The notes beneath the pieces were generated by a model. It was not told the origin of the DNA. It did no database searches and saw only the letters and a list, made by a program, of their open reading frames with translations. The position numbers and the translations under genes are program-made. 64,000 nt of DNA from Promethearchaeota archaeon (GTDB lineage: Archaea; Asgardarchaeota; Lokiarchaeia; Sigyniarchaeales; SOKP01): the NCBI GenBank assembly GCA_019058365.1, contig JAHPZE010000024.1:1-64000 (forward strand), given 5' to 3'. Shown here one piece after another: positions 38,935-59,771 of this stretch; position 1 is the stretch's first letter, and each line of letters opens with the position of its first letter.

Positions 38935-39012
38935 TGGCAGGCCCGGGGGGATTTGAACCCCCGATCGTCAGCTTAGGAGGCTGCCGCGATATCCATGCTT
39001 CGCCACGAGCCT
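38935..39012 (-). tRNA. tRNA-Arg(CCT), intron-less, CCA encoded
   Basis: Cloverleaf AGGCTCG...GCAGC CTCCTAA GCTGA...GGGGG TTCAAAT CCCCC CGGGCCT G CCA. Confidence 0.95.
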
Positions 39013-52897: not shown

Positions 52898-54916
52898 ATG
52901 AGTTACAAGCGAAAGAAACTATGGGAACCCTCAAACGAATGGATTAAAAATGCAGAAGCAACCCGTTTTATTGAATTTATCAATAAGGAATACAATCTTA
53001 ATATAAAAGGAGGGAAAGACCTATATAGATGGTCAGTTGAAAAAATTCCTGACTTTTGGGAAGCCATGTGGAAATTTTCAGGGATTATAGCATCCAAACC
53101 GTATTATAAGGCAGTAGAAGACTTAAGTGTTTTTCCAGGTACTAAATGGTTTCCTGGGGCAAAATTAAATTTTGCAGAGAATCTTCTGAAGTATAAGGAT
53201 GATCAACTAGCATTTATATTTCAAGGCGAAACTAAAGTATCCAAGCAAATAACCTATGCTGAATTAAATAAAACTGTATCTCGCTTAGCTAAATCTCTCA
53301 AGGAGGTTGGTGTTAAAGTTGGCGATAGAGTCGTTTCATACATCCCTAACTTAATTGAAACTCCCGTTGCCATGCTTGCCGGAGCAGCTATCGGTGCAAC
53401 TTGGGCTTCGTGTGGTGCTGAACTCCAACCTAGTGCCGTTATCGACCGATTTAGTCAAATTAAACCTAAAATTCTCTTTACCGTAGACGGTTATTATTAT
53501 CGAGACCAAGTATTTGATATCCGAGAGAATGCAAAGGTGGTGGTTGATGCCATTCCTTCCATAGAAAAAGTAATTGTGGTAACTTATGCCAGCGAAGGAA
53601 AGTGCGATGTGAGTGAAATTCCAAAAGCAGTCAATTGGGAAGATTTTATCTCTAAAGAGGAGGATCCACCACTTGAATTTGAACAACTTCCTTTTGATCA
53701 CCCCATTTATATAATGTTTTCAAGTGGTACTACGGGAAAGCCCAAATGTATGGTTCAAAGCGCAGGCGGGGTGTTGATTAACCATCTTAAAGAATTGATT
53801 CTCTCTACTGATTGCAAACGAAGTGATGTGCTTAATTATATTACCGCGCCCTCATGGATGATGGTGTAAGTATTCCTTATACCAGCCAAAATGTGGAACT
53901 GGCTTATCAGTGCCTTAGGCGTGGGCGCAACAATATTCTTATATGATGGAAATCCACTATACCCAGATCCATTAAGCTTTTTTGAATTGATTGAAAAGCA
54001 TAAAATCTCGATATTTGGTACTAGTGCTGCATATATCCACTATTTAATGGGACTTGGTGTTAAACCAGGTGAGAAATATGATCTGAGTGGTTTAAGGGAA
54101 ATATCACAAACAGCATCAACTCTTTCTCCAGAAGGTTTTGAATACGTTTATCGTGAAATTAAGAAAGATCTCTTTTTCAATTCTATTAGTGGTGGAACAG
54201 ATATTAATGGATGCTTTGCAGGAGCAATTCCAATTCTTCCTGTTTATTCTGGTGAATTGCAAGGGCGTGCATTAGGAATGAAAGTAGAAGCGTACAATGA
54301 TAATGCAAAACCTGTTGAAGATGAACAAGCAGAACTTGTATGTGAAGCACCAGCTCCTTCTATGCCCGTGTATTTCTGGGGAGATGATGATAATTTGACA
54401 AAATATAAAGCAGCTTATTTTGATCACTTTAAAGATACAGGAAAGAATGTATGGAGACACGGAGATTATATAGTAATTCATAGTGACACAGATGGAATTA
54501 CTTTTTGGGGACGCTCTGATGCTGTTTTAAAGCCCTCAGGAGTAAGAATTGGTACTGCTGAAATATATAATGTAGTCGAACAACTTCCTGAAGTTTCAGA
54601 CTCATTGGTAATTGGTCAACAATGGGAAGGTGATATCCGCATTGTTATGTTCGTTCTATTAAATAAGGGCTATGAATTAACAAATGAATTAAAAACAAAA
54701 ATACAACAGACTATTCGAGAAAAAACAAGTCCAAGACATGTGCCAAAGTTAATATATGCTGCACCATCTGATGGGATTCCTTACACTTTTAGTAATAAGA
54801 AAGTTGAAATTGCAGTAACTAAAATTATACATGGTATGGAAGTAGCTAATCGTGGAGCCCTCCGAAACCCAGAATCCTTGGACTTCTATATGCAAATGAA
54901 AGATAAACTTAAATAA
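52898..54916 (+). CDS. aacs: Acetoacetate--CoA ligase (AACS), interrupted by a 30-nt putative BHB intron; spliced product 662 aa
   Basis: Two ORFs (52898-53869, 53891-54916) in the same frame; WFPGAKLNFAENLL, MFSSGTTGKPKC, WMM|WNWL, SISGGTD, WRHGD, GRSDAVL...GVRIGTAEIY. Confidence 0.92.
53861..53890 (+). other. Putative bulge-helix-bulge mRNA mini-intron (30 nt)
   Basis: atggtgtaagtattccttataccagccaaa contains an in-frame TAA and a 9-bp internal stem; BHB bulges UGA (53859-61) and AAA (53889-91); excision restores SWMMWNW. Confidence 0.8.
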
Positions 54917-54924
54917 ACAAAATT

Positions 54925-56034
54925 TTAATTCTTTTTTTTTAATTTAAAACATTTTTTTTTTCTATATAAGCTATCTTCATAATTAGTAAGCATTTCTCGC
55001 ATAAGATCCATCCCAAGATAGATATTATAACCAATTCCTTCCCATTCACTATTAGTTTGCCAAATTTTATAGGGTATTTTAAAATAACATTTAACTTGTT
55101 GGATAAAATTGATGCTTCCAGATGTGATTACAGTTGATCCTACCTTACCATCACCATCATAGTATCCTAAAATAAAAGCTAAATACAATTCTCTCGAGGC
55201 TAATCTTGGCAATTCAATAAATCTAGATTTTTGATTTCCAACTATAAAACCATGTCTAATTAAAGTATTTGCAAATTCATCATTAACAAACCGAATCCTC
55301 ACATAATCAGTTAATTCTCCTTCTCTTCTAATTTCGATTTCTTTATGCTCAAGATTAAAACCTATGACATTAGCAAATTTATCTAATAAATCTTTTTCAT
55401 CATCTTTATGCAATTCAACTCCAAATCTGATATTATTTCCATGTTCAGAAAGCCAGGCTTCTGCGAATAACCATCCTAACCAATAAGCTTTTTCTTTAGT
55501 ATCGATATATTCGAAATAATCAATTTTTAAGCATGGATGCCATTTATATATACCATATATCGATTTCTTTGGATTATTTAAACTCATATATTTATTAAAT
55601 AACTCAGAGATTTCTCTGGGGACTCTGCATAAATTTTTATCGATCTGAGATTTATACTCTTTAAGTGTTTCGATGGAGATTATGTAATTTGGATTTTGCT
55701 TTATCTGATCTTTCTTTTTTTTAATATGAAACCTTGTTTGCCCTAGAACAATACTTAATTGTTCATCTGTTAATTTATCATTCAATAATTTTTTTTCTGG
55801 AATATAATTAACAATTAATCTCTTTAAATCATTTATGAAGCTTAATGTATCATAAATGTTAGAGTTTTTTGAAAATACATTAAGATTATTATCAAAATTT
55901 TCATTAATATAATATGAATTAATTCCTTTTTTAAAATAGGCAAATTGTTTACTGTTAGAACAATTTCTTTTAATCATATGCTTTTTAGAGCAATATATGT
56001 CATTAGTTCTTATAGTGGATTTATTTTTAACCAT
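54925..56034 (-). CDS. Free-standing two-motif LAGLIDADG homing-endonuclease-like protein
   Basis: YFEYIDTKEKAYWLGWLFAEA (motif 1) and LAFILGYYDGDG (motif 2) with an N-terminal extension. Confidence 0.85.
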   Translation of the reverse strand: MVKNKSTIRTNDIYCSKKHMIKRNCSNSKQFAYFKKGINSYYINENFDNNLNVFSKNSNIYDTLSFINDLKRLIVNYIPEKKLLNDKLTDEQLSIVLGQTRFHIKKKKDQIKQNPNYIISIETLKEYKSQIDKNLCRVPREISELFNKYMSLNNPKKSIYGIYKWHPCLKIDYFEYIDTKEKAYWLGWLFAEAWLSEHGNNIRFGVELHKDDEKDLLDKFANVIGFNLEHKEIEIRREGELTDYVRIRFVNDEFANTLIRHGFIVGNQKSRFIELPRLASRELYLAFILGYYDGDGKVGSTVITSGSINFIQQVKCYFKIPYKIWQTNSEWEGIGYNIYLGMDLMREMLTNYEDSLYRKKKCFKLKKKN

Positions 56035-56268: not shown

Positions 56269-59200
56269 TCAAATTTTTTCATTATATTCAATAATAACAA
56301 CACTACCTTCAATTTCTAATAAAGAAATTCTTTCTTCTTTTATACCAGCACATAAAAGGGCATAAACTATTCTATAATTAGTAAAAAAGTCGCGTTCAAT
56401 TTCTCTGGGTGAAGATAAATCAATTTTAGTTTTATTCTCAGAGAAGATTTTAAAGGAGTTGATAACCTTTTCAGCAAGTACCTTATTTATTTCAATTTTA
56501 TTTAATTTATGTTTATCTTTAAATTGATTAAAACTCAAGTATATTTGAAACTTGTCTCCTATTAGGATTTCTTCATTAAAACATTCAGCATTGAACAATT
56601 TATGGTATGCAGAATTTATATTTTTTAAAATTTGAAAGCCGTTTATTATTAAATTCCTAATCTCTTCTTTTTTTTCTCGAAAAAATTCTTGAGTATTATT
56701 ATGACGTTCAGGATTAGCAATTGTTACTAAATCATTTAAAAAAGAAATACAAAGATCCTTTTTGCTTTTTCCAAAAATGAATTGAAAAATATTATCCCAA
56801 TTATAAGCATTATTAATGATATATTTATAATGATATCTTTGACTTAGATATAGTATATTTTTGTTGGAATAGCTTATTGGAAGGCCCTTTCTGACATATT
56901 TTTCTTCCTCCTTATCCAAGTCCGACTGAATTTTAGGTGGCAGTTTTGATTTCCAGATATCTCCATATAATAAGTAAAAAATATTGTAAATGAAAATTCG
57001 TAATTTTGTCTCGAAAAATGTCCAAAGTTCACCAACGCATTCCTTGTAAAGATGTAACCAGTAAAATGCTCTAATTCTATTAAACTTCTTTTTATCTTCA
57101 TTAGTCAAACCTTGTGTTCCTATTATGATAATTCCATTGTATCTTATCCACTTTTCTATTTTTTTTATCAATGCTATTATACCACTAACAAATGCAGCTA
57201 TAAAAATAGTTTTATCTTCATTTGAAAGATTTAGGCTCTCTTCACAAAATTGTAACTGGTGAATATACCTCCTAAATACTTCATTATCTTTCCAAGTGTA
57301 TAAAAATTCATCAAATAGTTCTTTCTGAGAAGAGATCTTTTTTTCTTCCCCAGATAGTTCATATAAATAGTTTAAAACGAATTGAAATACGACTTTTGAT
57401 TTCTCTATTATTTCTCCAAATGAGATTTTTGAATTTGCATATTCAATAACTTGAGAGAAAGGATTCGCTATATTTTTCTTTAACTTGTTTAGATTTTTTT
57501 GCTCTGTTGGATTACCTCTTGCGATCCCATCTAATCTTGACAAGGTATTTCTTGAATAATCAATAAAATTTAAACCTTTTGGCTCATCTCCACTCAGAAT
57601 CTGATTAATATAATATTTAAGAGTAAACTTGAAAGTATTTACCACATCTAAACAAAAATTTCTTAAATCATTAGAAAGTCCCCAAATGAAATCATCTTTT
57701 ATCTTATTTCTGGCAATTAATTTGTACTGATTAAGGATTGTAAAGAGTTCAATATTATTTTCAAAAAGATCTTCCCCTTCCTTTACTATTTTTTTTTCTT
57801 GTATTATACATAATAGTTCCGCTATATTATTTATAACATCTTTTGAAACACTTAATTCTTTCTTTAATGCATTCAATTTTGCGTGCAAATCTTTCCGTTC
57901 CGTTAATTTCTGATAAATTGGCTCGAATGAGTCTTGATCTAAATCGTAATTAATGGATAATAAACCAATATTTTGACTAGTACTTGATATTCTGTCCTGA
58001 AATTCTTCTATGAAGGTTCTAAAGGGAATTTCACGAGGATAACTTCTTTGTATAATATTCATTAAATGCTCAATATCTGTATAAGAAATATATTTTGTAA
58101 AATCATAGGGTTCTTCATTTGAAAAGGCTTCTAACCTTCTTCTAATTAGTTCGAAAGCATCTAAAGGGCCAATAGAGTCAAACGGTTCTTTTTGGAAGAT
58201 TGTACCTTCATAAGCAGAATTTTCTCTAAGTTCTTTTATCCATAATTTTGAACCTGCAATAAATAAGCTTACTTTTATATTTTCTCTAAGGATCTCTTCG
58301 AAAAAGTTTTGGAGTCCCTTTAAAAAATCAAGAGCTAAATTAGCTTGATTATCATATTTATGTAACCCATCCAAATATACAACAAATCCTTTGGATGAAG
58401 AATTATCCAAAAAAATTTTAAAAAGCTGTATTATCTCATCTGAAGAATTCCCTGAAATATAGCTCCTGGGATCGATACTAGTCCATCTGATTAACGCTTT
58501 ATATAATGCAACATATAATTTTTTAAAAAAGAGATTTCTTATTTGAAATATTGATTGAGAGGCATCTAACATAATTTGCAGAGGTATTATTTTTGAATTA
58601 ATAAAAAAAGGATAAAGATAATCAAATAATGTTGTTTTCCCACATCCAAACTCCCCATAAAATAAATAAGACTTTCCTAACAATTCATCTGGATATTCTC
58701 TAACTAGCTGAGTATATTTCCTAAATATAGGTAGCATAACTACTATCTTTTCATAGTATTCTTCCTCGATGTATGTTAGACCATAAGCAGTTGGAAAAGG
58801 ATTCCGTTCCAATCCAATAATGCGCCACCAAGGTTGGACATCTCTTAATTTTCCTAATTTTCGCTTCTCTATATATTTATTAGATAACACTAATGGACTT
58901 ACGCTTAATTCTTCATCAATTCTCGAACGAAATTCATCTAATTTTTTTTTTTCCCTTAAAATTTTCTCTTCAATCCTCTCTTGAACTTCTATGATAACCT
59001 CTTCTTTTGCTTTTTTAAGCATAGCAATGTTCTCAATCTCTCCACTACTTAATTTTTCTTTGATTTCTTGGAAAAAACTCTGAGAATCTGGATCATTCGA
59101 TTCTATTATCTCGTTTTGGTAATGAACAAATTCTCGAATTACAGTTTTTTCAGATAAAAAAGGGATTTTGTTAATTATAATTTCAAGATCTTCTTGATTC

Positions 59201-59403
59201 GAGATCTGATTGGAATCTACTAAATATTGAATAATTTCGTGAGCTAAATTCGCCCAGTTAGGATTGCCATATTTTTTCTTATGTTTGTCTATAAAAAATT
59301 TTGTTTTCCGTTTCTTTAAATCATCTAAATTTACTTTATTTGTAATTATCCTAGAATAGTTTTTTTTAATAAATTCACGAATAATTTCTCTTGTATCTGT
59401 CAT
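56269..59403 (-). CDS. Large P-loop NTPase with C-terminal Swt1/HEPN-like domain (possible defence protein)
   Basis: GLERNPF, Walker A YGEFGCGKTT, Walker B FVVYLDGLH; C-terminal FETKLR.FI...YG..W...NWD.IF..IFG...NPERH. Confidence 0.75.
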   Translation of the reverse strand: MTDTREIIREFIKKNYSRIITNKVNLDDLKKRKTKFFIDKHKKKYGNPNWANLAHEIIQYLVDSNQISNQEDLEIIINKIPFLSEKTVIREFVHYQNEIIESNDPDSQSFFQEIKEKLSSGEIENIAMLKKAKEEVIIEVQERIEEKILREKKKLDEFRSRIDEELSVSPLVLSNKYIEKRKLGKLRDVQPWWRIIGLERNPFPTAYGLTYIEEEYYEKIVVMLPIFRKYTQLVREYPDELLGKSYLFYGEFGCGKTTLFDYLYPFFINSKIIPLQIMLDASQSIFQIRNLFFKKLYVALYKALIRWTSIDPRSYISGNSSDEIIQLFKIFLDNSSSKGFVVYLDGLHKYDNQANLALDFLKGLQNFFEEILRENIKVSLFIAGSKLWIKELRENSAYEGTIFQKEPFDSIGPLDAFELIRRRLEAFSNEEPYDFTKYISYTDIEHLMNIIQRSYPREIPFRTFIEEFQDRISSTSQNIGLLSINYDLDQDSFEPIYQKLTERKDLHAKLNALKKELSVSKDVINNIAELLCIIQEKKIVKEGEDLFENNIELFTILNQYKLIARNKIKDDFIWGLSNDLRNFCLDVVNTFKFTLKYYINQILSGDEPKGLNFIDYSRNTLSRLDGIARGNPTEQKNLNKLKKNIANPFSQVIEYANSKISFGEIIEKSKVVFQFVLNYLYELSGEEKKISSQKELFDEFLYTWKDNEVFRRYIHQLQFCEESLNLSNEDKTIFIAAFVSGIIALIKKIEKWIRYNGIIIIGTQGLTNEDKKKFNRIRAFYWLHLYKECVGELWTFFETKLRIFIYNIFYLLYGDIWKSKLPPKIQSDLDKEEEKYVRKGLPISYSNKNILYLSQRYHYKYIINNAYNWDNIFQFIFGKSKKDLCISFLNDLVTIANPERHNNTQEFFREKKEEIRNLIINGFQILKNINSAYHKLFNAECFNEEILIGDKFQIYLSFNQFKDKHKLNKIEINKVLAEKVINSFKIFSENKTKIDLSSPREIERDFFTNYRIVYALLCAGIKEERISLLEIEGSVVIIEYNEKI

Positions 59404-59591
59404 TGTATTTAATTTTTCAAATTAACTTCTATAAATTCTTTTGGTAAAGAACAATTATGTATAAAAGTTAATTATTTTTTTCTCGATTTAATATTAACTA
59501 TCAGTTTATAATTAATTTCATGCCATTATTTTAAATTTTTTTTAGCATATCTTTATCATTCAAATATTAAAAAAAAAAACTTCATAATTTT

Positions 59592-59771
59592 CACGTATTA
59601 AGGCTTGTAGTTCAAGCACCTCCAGATGGTATTCCCTATACATTTAGTAATAAAAAGGTTGAAATAGCAGTGACCAAAATCATCCACGGCATGGAAGTAG
59701 CCAATCGTGGAGCTCTTAGAAATCCTGAATCCCTGGATTACTACATGGAAATGAAGGATAAGCTACAATAA
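59592..59771 (+). pseudogene. Orphan duplicate of the AACS 3' end (copy 2)
   Basis: HVLRLVVQAPPDGIPYTFSNKKVEIAVTKIIHGMEVANRGALRNPESLDYYMEMKDKLQ*, 50/59 aa identical to 54737-54916 with many synonymous differences. Confidence 0.95.

Follow-up and report, generated by a model that had tools for sequence, protein, structure and literature searches.

A putative tRNA-type mini-intron in the acetoacetate-CoA ligase mRNA of a Lokiarchaeon and its possible spread with a LAGLIDADG endonuclease gene

Introduction

In the genome of a Lokiarchaeon, the gene for acetoacetate-CoA ligase (AACS) is broken into two open reading frames, 52898–53869 and 53891–54916, which lie in one frame around a 30-nt insert with a stop codon. 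This locus raises two questions: how a complete enzyme could be made from it, and how the insert came to be there. Coordinates without a contig name refer to the window, which is the whole 64,000-nt stretch of DNA that was analyzed; the nearest relatives of the source genome are Promethearchaeota (Lokiarchaeia) genomes. The answer to the first question is very probably that the insert is an mRNA intron, which would be cut by the tRNA-splicing endonuclease EndA and ligated by RtcB to give full-length AACS.

The interrupted gene

The AACS gene consists of three parts:

52898–53860, forward strand: AACS exon 1, 321 codons ending in PSWM, with a match to TIGR01217
53861–53890, forward strand: putative bulge-helix-bulge (BHB) intron of 30 nt, with an in-frame TAA at 53867–53869
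53891–54916, forward strand: AACS exon 2, 341 codons starting with MWNW, with a match to TIGR01217

In a profile search the two halves abut on TIGR01217/PRK03584, covering profile positions 4–320 and 320–653 (4–319 and 319–650 for the exons on TIGR01217). The coordinates and sequences given in an earlier sequence-only reading proved correct: an in-frame insert with a stop lies between the two methionines of the AACS motif WMMWNW, and excision of 53861–53890 leaves a 662-aa open reading frame with SWMMWNW, as in intron-less orthologs and the solved enzyme 4wd1. The same host product is restored by the BHB cut rule, which places cleavage after the second nucleotide of each bulge. Because ATG is repeated at the junction, alignment alone cannot fix the cut: four alternative removals (starting at 53861 to 53864) yield an identical spliced sequence, leaving an ambiguity of 0–3 nt, and it is the BHB rule that selects one register among them. 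The interrupted gene is the only close AACS copy in the genome. No other genomic site resembles the insert at 8 or fewer mismatches apart from one chance match, and thus no tRNA donor was found.

Fold and covariation

The predicted elements of the BHB fold are as follows:

53855–53861, forward strand: 5′ strand of the central helix (UGGA) and 5′ bulge (UGA), with a predicted cut after 53860
53862–53884, forward strand: intron stem of 9 bp with a variable 5-nt loop, showing covariation
53885–53891, forward strand: 3′ strand of the central helix (GCCA) and 3′ bulge (AAA), with a predicted cut after 53890

These elements agree with those first described from the sequence, namely an exon stem (53850–53854/53892–53896) with one U-U, a central helix UGGA/GCCA with one A-G, bulges UGA and AAA, and a 9-bp intron stem closed by a 5-nt loop. 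The part to be revised is the exon stem, which in most carriers is probably 2 bp rather than 5 and set inside a larger junction built from exon sequence. The fold of the single sequence is not above chance (z = -1.45 and -1.27), and the BHB conformer, at -13.3 kcal/mol, lies 2.3 kcal/mol above the minimum of -15.6; the case therefore rests on comparison.

Across 19 variants, the intron stem is 94% paired, compared with 29–46% in slid controls, and four of its nine pairs show two-sided changes. Stem covariation is 0.123 versus 0.066 in shuffles (reached in 0 of 500) and 0.010–0.066 in slid controls, with the shuffle test inflated by kinship among the AACS copies. The loop varies freely, most of its positions being only 32–59% identical among carriers. 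Three pairs of the central helix are invariant, and its fourth position is paired in only 1 of the 19 variants. BHB spacing is exact in all copies; 24 of 25 have a central helix of three pairs with A-G or A-A in the fourth position, and in one copy the helix is perfect. The exon pairs C-G and A-U are retained in 24 of the 25 carriers, giving flanking helices of at least 2 bp. As judged from these sequences, the junction fits a relaxed BHB only. The intron ends in CCAAA in every carrier. The second codon of the intron encodes Val or Ile in all copies, with an invariant middle T (53865) whose pairing partner varies in 7 of 25.

Distribution and selection

A 30-nt insert was found at the same AACS site in 33 fetched loci (26 distinct), and WMMWNW is read directly, with the insert exactly absent, in 91 loci (about 56 distinct); no other insert length occurs among the fetched AACS loci. 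By pattern search, the insert is present in 20 of the 154 genomes of the order, in six genera of one family, which excludes an assembly error. The ortholog survey that had been proposed from the sequence thus yielded both precise presence or absence and compensatory changes in the stem.

Every copy of the insert contains an in-frame stop. Both AACS halves are nevertheless open in nearly all carriers, and dN/dS is 0.035–0.14 in carrier pairs, like that of intron-less pairs. By this measure both halves are under purifying selection, and a functional AACS means that the insert is removed or skipped, or that the enzyme is made in two chains. That the insert instead inactivates the gene, the carriers being pseudogenes marked by, for example, the footprints of small palindromic elements, is extremely unlikely. 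Its hairpin shape and universal stop would suit such an origin, but the halves are intact in nearly all copies with dN/dS of at most 0.14, the length is constant, changes are compensatory, the genome holds no similar sequence, and the gene is its only close AACS copy. The selection data already largely refute this explanation.

Splicing machinery and further inserts

The source genome encodes an EndA alpha subunit with the catalytic Tyr/His/Lys on contig C26, an EndA beta subunit on contig C12, and RtcB. The EndA alpha loop aligns without gaps to that of PDB 3p1z, an Aeropyrum enzyme. Asgard EndA is reported to carry a broad-specificity L1 loop that permits relaxed motifs (PMC5829648). ARAGORN called introns in 19 of the 30 tRNAs of the source genome. 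Within the window, a tRNA-Arg(CCT) without an intron lies at 38935–39012 on the reverse strand.

Seven further inserts were found in the same genome:

C52:2085–2114, forward strand: 30-nt insert in rpoA' (locus L291), with a stop inside the zinc-site motif
C52:30988–31019, forward strand: 32-nt insert in EF-1alpha, within the P-loop
C46:48704–48733, forward strand: 30-nt insert in an acyl-CoA dehydrogenase gene, BHB-shaped
C36:26637, reverse strand: 31-nt insert in mevalonate kinase, BHB-shaped
C6:17691, reverse strand: 26-nt insert in a mutase gene, BHB-shaped
C9:585, reverse strand: 32-nt insert in lsrF, BHB-shaped
C9:32935, forward strand: 30-nt insert in AMP phosphorylase, BHB-shaped

These inserts are 26–32 nt long and occur in all three phases. 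At each of them, cutting by the BHB rule gives back a motif of the protein family. In several the exon stem is weak or a bulge base is not A. The interrupted rpoA' and EF-1alpha genes are the genome's only copies, and the splice register is unique for rpoA' and mevalonate kinase. Of the 29 relatives with a match, 28 have an uninterrupted rpoA'; genome G017 (locus L292) carries a 30-nt insert, diverged in sequence, at this rpoA' site.

Motif-only genome scans with reading-frame rescue gave equal numbers of hits for real and mirror geometry (1860 versus 1715; 57 versus 54). The genome-wide BHB search suggested by the sequence-only reading therefore does no better than its mirror control and does not yield an intron number per genome. 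In one motif-only scan, the AACS intron had the top rank for stem energy per base. A candidate at C44:3042 was rejected as two adjacent ABC-transporter-like genes, and a sigma-70 promoter scan was uninformative for an archaeal host. A 1224-aa open reading frame at C35:55929–59603 (forward strand) has an internal endonuclease-like segment that is probably an intein.

The further inserts bear on two other ways of obtaining the enzyme. In ribosomal bypass, the ribosome would take off at ATG 53861–53863, skip the hairpin and land at ATG 53891–53893 on uncut RNA. The matched codons would give the correct AACS protein, the hairpin and in-frame stop are kept in every copy, and the T4 gene 60 bypass insert with its MobA neighbor is a precedent (10.1101/2022.08.31.505936). 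Bypass is improbable all the same: six of the other inserts were tested and none has a matched codon pair that gives the family sequence, which makes it less likely for AACS; EndA geometry accounts for the invariant CCAAA end and for bulges spaced at 3 nt; and a Val or Ile codon separates the ATG from the stop, whereas bypass of the gene 60 type calls for a stop or slow codon directly after take-off. Still less probable is a split enzyme, with termination at the TAA, restart at ATG 53891 and assembly of two chains. An ATG does open exon 2 and both halves are under selection, but the break would fall inside a motif conserved with 4wd1, the sequence before 53891 has no purine-rich ribosome-binding site, the scheme is inapplicable to inserts that lie 15–26 codons into a frame or within P-loop or zinc motifs, and it leaves the BHB geometry unaccounted for.

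The EndA/RtcB intron is thus favored by the precision of presence and absence, the covariation, the selected halves, the encoded EndA and RtcB, and seven similar inserts, two of them in essential genes. The AACS pre-mRNA would fold as a relaxed BHB (three pairs plus A-G), probably held in place by exon-built helices. The two-subunit EndA would then cut after 53860 and 53890, and RtcB would join the exons into an mRNA for 662-aa AACS.

Predicted exon scaffold

The candidate scaffold has three exon-encoded elements:

53846–53851, forward strand: 5′ strand of the closing helix P1, pairing with 53923–53928
53923–53928, forward strand: 3′ strand of P1, with two-sided changes at one wobble pair
53895–53914, forward strand: side hairpin P3 of a predicted three-way junction, in exon 2, from the consensus fold

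All six P1 pairs are Watson-Crick in 17 of 25 carriers versus 2 of 56 intron-less copies, and the wobble pair has changed from G-C to A-U (two copies) and U-A (one copy). For P3, which shows no two-sided change, the corresponding counts are 18 of 25 and 3 of 56. Between codon -6 and about codon +11, carriers show stronger conservation at synonymous sites than intron-less copies do, and the consensus fold energy is -15.4 kcal/mol in carriers versus -0.6 in intron-less copies, where there is in effect no consensus fold. Co-conversion may account for part of this conservation of the exon flanks. Carrier L010 has no such scaffold, which shows that it is not essential. Carrier L249 (around positions 1955–2070 of that locus) has a 5′ flank of the intron-less type and keeps the closing helix by another pair (U-A). 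A reading of the exon junction as a tRNA mimic was dropped because there is no equivalent of the T-arm.

Probable spread of the intron

The question of how the insert arrived directs attention to the following neighboring features:

54925–56034, reverse strand: free-standing, two-motif LAGLIDADG-type endonuclease gene, 369 aa, phrog_4645 match (E 4e-20)
59571–59768, forward strand: second, displaced copy of the 3′ tail of AACS, some 60 codons long, 78–85% identical
C52:29216–30709, forward strand: phrog_4645 endonuclease-like gene directly upstream of EF-1alpha
C46:49077–50567, forward strand: endonuclease-like gene that follows the acyl-CoA dehydrogenase gene

The 369-aa endonuclease gene is convergent with AACS and lies 8 nt from the AACS stop. 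Its product matches LAGLIDADG clusters (0.95) and has invariant acidic residues E192 and D295; no PDB sequence match was found for it, and an AlphaFold model made without an alignment (pLDDT 33) was set aside. Where 1.2 kb or more of sequence downstream of AACS was available, a member of this subfamily adjoins 9 of 19 carriers and, as a remnant, 1 of 49 intron-less copies; because the copies are related, the counts do not amount to a formal test, and we attach no P value to them. The nine comprise six long copies downstream, one upstream and two remnants, and 10 carriers have no endonuclease nearby in the sequence examined. The upstream gene, in carrier L195 (positions 1–723 of the locus; genome G012, C53:5632–6570), has internal stops, and the 3′ exon flank of L195 is of the intron-less type. 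Three of the four free-standing phrog_4645 genes of the source genome abut insert-bearing genes (AACS, EF-1alpha and acyl-CoA dehydrogenase), and the phrog_4645 search found no such neighbor at the five other inserts.

Carriers are scattered on the gene tree, with 14–20 label changes away from the junction versus about 22 for shuffled labels, whereas the junction segment requires only four changes between carrier and non-carrier. Common tracts in carrier pairs begin 16–58 nt upstream of the intron and run 3′ toward the endonuclease. Divergence falls from 0.27 of sites upstream to 0.03 downstream between L001 and L036, and from 0.27 to 0.06 between L016 and L104. Downstream-close pairs number 17, of which 16 involve a carrier, against one upstream-close pair. 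The displaced AACS tail at 59571–59768 is a probable scar at the far end of an incoming block. Between it and the endonuclease gene lies a 1044-aa open reading frame (56269–59403, reverse strand); it contains a P-loop-like motif, matches neither Pfam nor PHROG families, and is probably cargo. In loci L171–L249, nearly every relative has a different gene following AACS, and several genomes contain partial duplicates of the AACS tail; the 3′ end of AACS is a general hot spot of recombination. Genome G062 has two divergent AACS copies (L171 and L191), each with an intron and an endonuclease gene; bin contamination (9%) is possible there.

The scattered distribution, the adjacent LAGLIDADG gene and the polarized tracts point to selfish spread. 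A reasonably likely account is collaborative homing, in which the endonuclease drives the spread of the intron and the intron confers immunity. Alleles without the intron would be cleaved by the endonuclease at or close to the WMMWNW codons. Donor-templated repair would then bring in the intron together with a tract running 3′ toward the endonuclease gene, and the presence of the intron would shield the converted allele from further cutting. Cleavage, ligation and translation, and the cutting of DNA and its site, are steps that we infer.

A vertical history competes only with this homing step and accepts that splicing is real. It posits one old gain and many precise losses, through cDNA or deletion between the ATG repeats, with the exon flanks conserved for structure only and the endonuclease a bystander at a hot spot. 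Losses do occur: in L208 the junction was replaced by an intron-less allele, and L201, which cleanly lacks the intron, differs from carrier L242 only at background level. Flank conservation also persists in distant carrier pairs, in which the intron loop is nearly saturated, and the downstream cargo is variable in intron-less copies too. What makes a vertical history rather unlikely is that breakpoints cluster just upstream of the intron with tracts running toward the endonuclease, and that close endonuclease homologues (at least 63% identity) occur in the genus only beside AACS.

The intron is dispensable and probably selfish. The sequence-only reading had proposed an EndA/RtcB intron with a possible regulatory role. 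Comparison upholds the intron, as a putative one, but lends no support to regulation: most AACS orthologs have no intron, and the pattern points to selfish spread. The wider proposal, for which the balance tilts slightly in favor, is that Lokiarchaeia splice many coding mRNAs, essential ones included, with the tRNA endonuclease, and that mini-introns without a reading frame invade conserved codons and pass from species to species through collaborative homing with free-standing LAGLIDADG genes. On this view mRNA introns would have proliferated a second time, by a non-spliceosomal route, in the archaeal group closest to eukaryotes.

Comparison with known systems

If these inserts are spliced, mRNA splicing would be routine in Lokiarchaeia, and standard annotation would truncate or lose genes such as rpoA', EF-1alpha and AACS, with effects on metabolic reconstructions. 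The link to an endonuclease suggests a route, open to test, by which BHB introns could arrive and spread. There is no direct bearing on the origin of spliceosomal introns because the chemistry is different.

A BHB intron in the cbf5 pre-mRNA of Crenarchaeota was reportedly described by Watanabe in 2002. Such introns are treated in a later study (Yokobori 2009, PMC2738675), and as of 2020 cbf5 was the sole reported archaeal case in a coding region (PMC7714728). No Asgard mRNA BHB intron was found in the literature within reach of the search, outside which most subscription papers lay. Like the cbf5 intron, the AACS insert is short, has no reading frame of its own, sits in a conserved coding motif, forms a relaxed BHB, is accompanied by a hetero-oligomeric EndA and is patchily present. 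Unlike cbf5, it occurs in an Asgard host and a metabolic gene, as one of at least eight such inserts in a single genome, next to an endonuclease gene and with indications of horizontal spread. Splicing of cbf5 was shown by cDNA, whereas that of AACS we infer from sequence.

A BHB site in HVO_1309 of Haloferax volcanii (PMC7714728) likewise involves EndA acting on an mRNA, but it lies in the 5′ untranslated region, while the AACS insert interrupts a reading frame. BHB introns of Asgard tRNAs (bioRxiv 10.64898/2026.10.13.758758) share the host group, motif, machinery and repeated gains; that study concerns tRNA genes only and gives no general route of arrival, for which a candidate is proposed here.

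Collaborative or trans homing in phages (PMC2988022) likewise pairs a free-standing endonuclease with an adjacent insert that has no reading frame and occupies a conserved site. Phage homing, including that of MobA and gene 60, also resembles the present case in the co-conversion of flanks and in an endonuclease that is often decayed or lost while the insert stays. In contrast to the phage systems, a cellular archaeal chromosome and a LAGLIDADG enzyme are involved here, and removal of the AACS insert is predicted to depend on the tRNA-splicing enzyme of the host, not on self-splicing or ribosome hopping. The gene 60 bypass insert protects against the neighboring homing endonuclease MobA (10.1101/2022.08.31.505936), and this cassette is the closest precedent for an endonuclease that travels with a protective insert.
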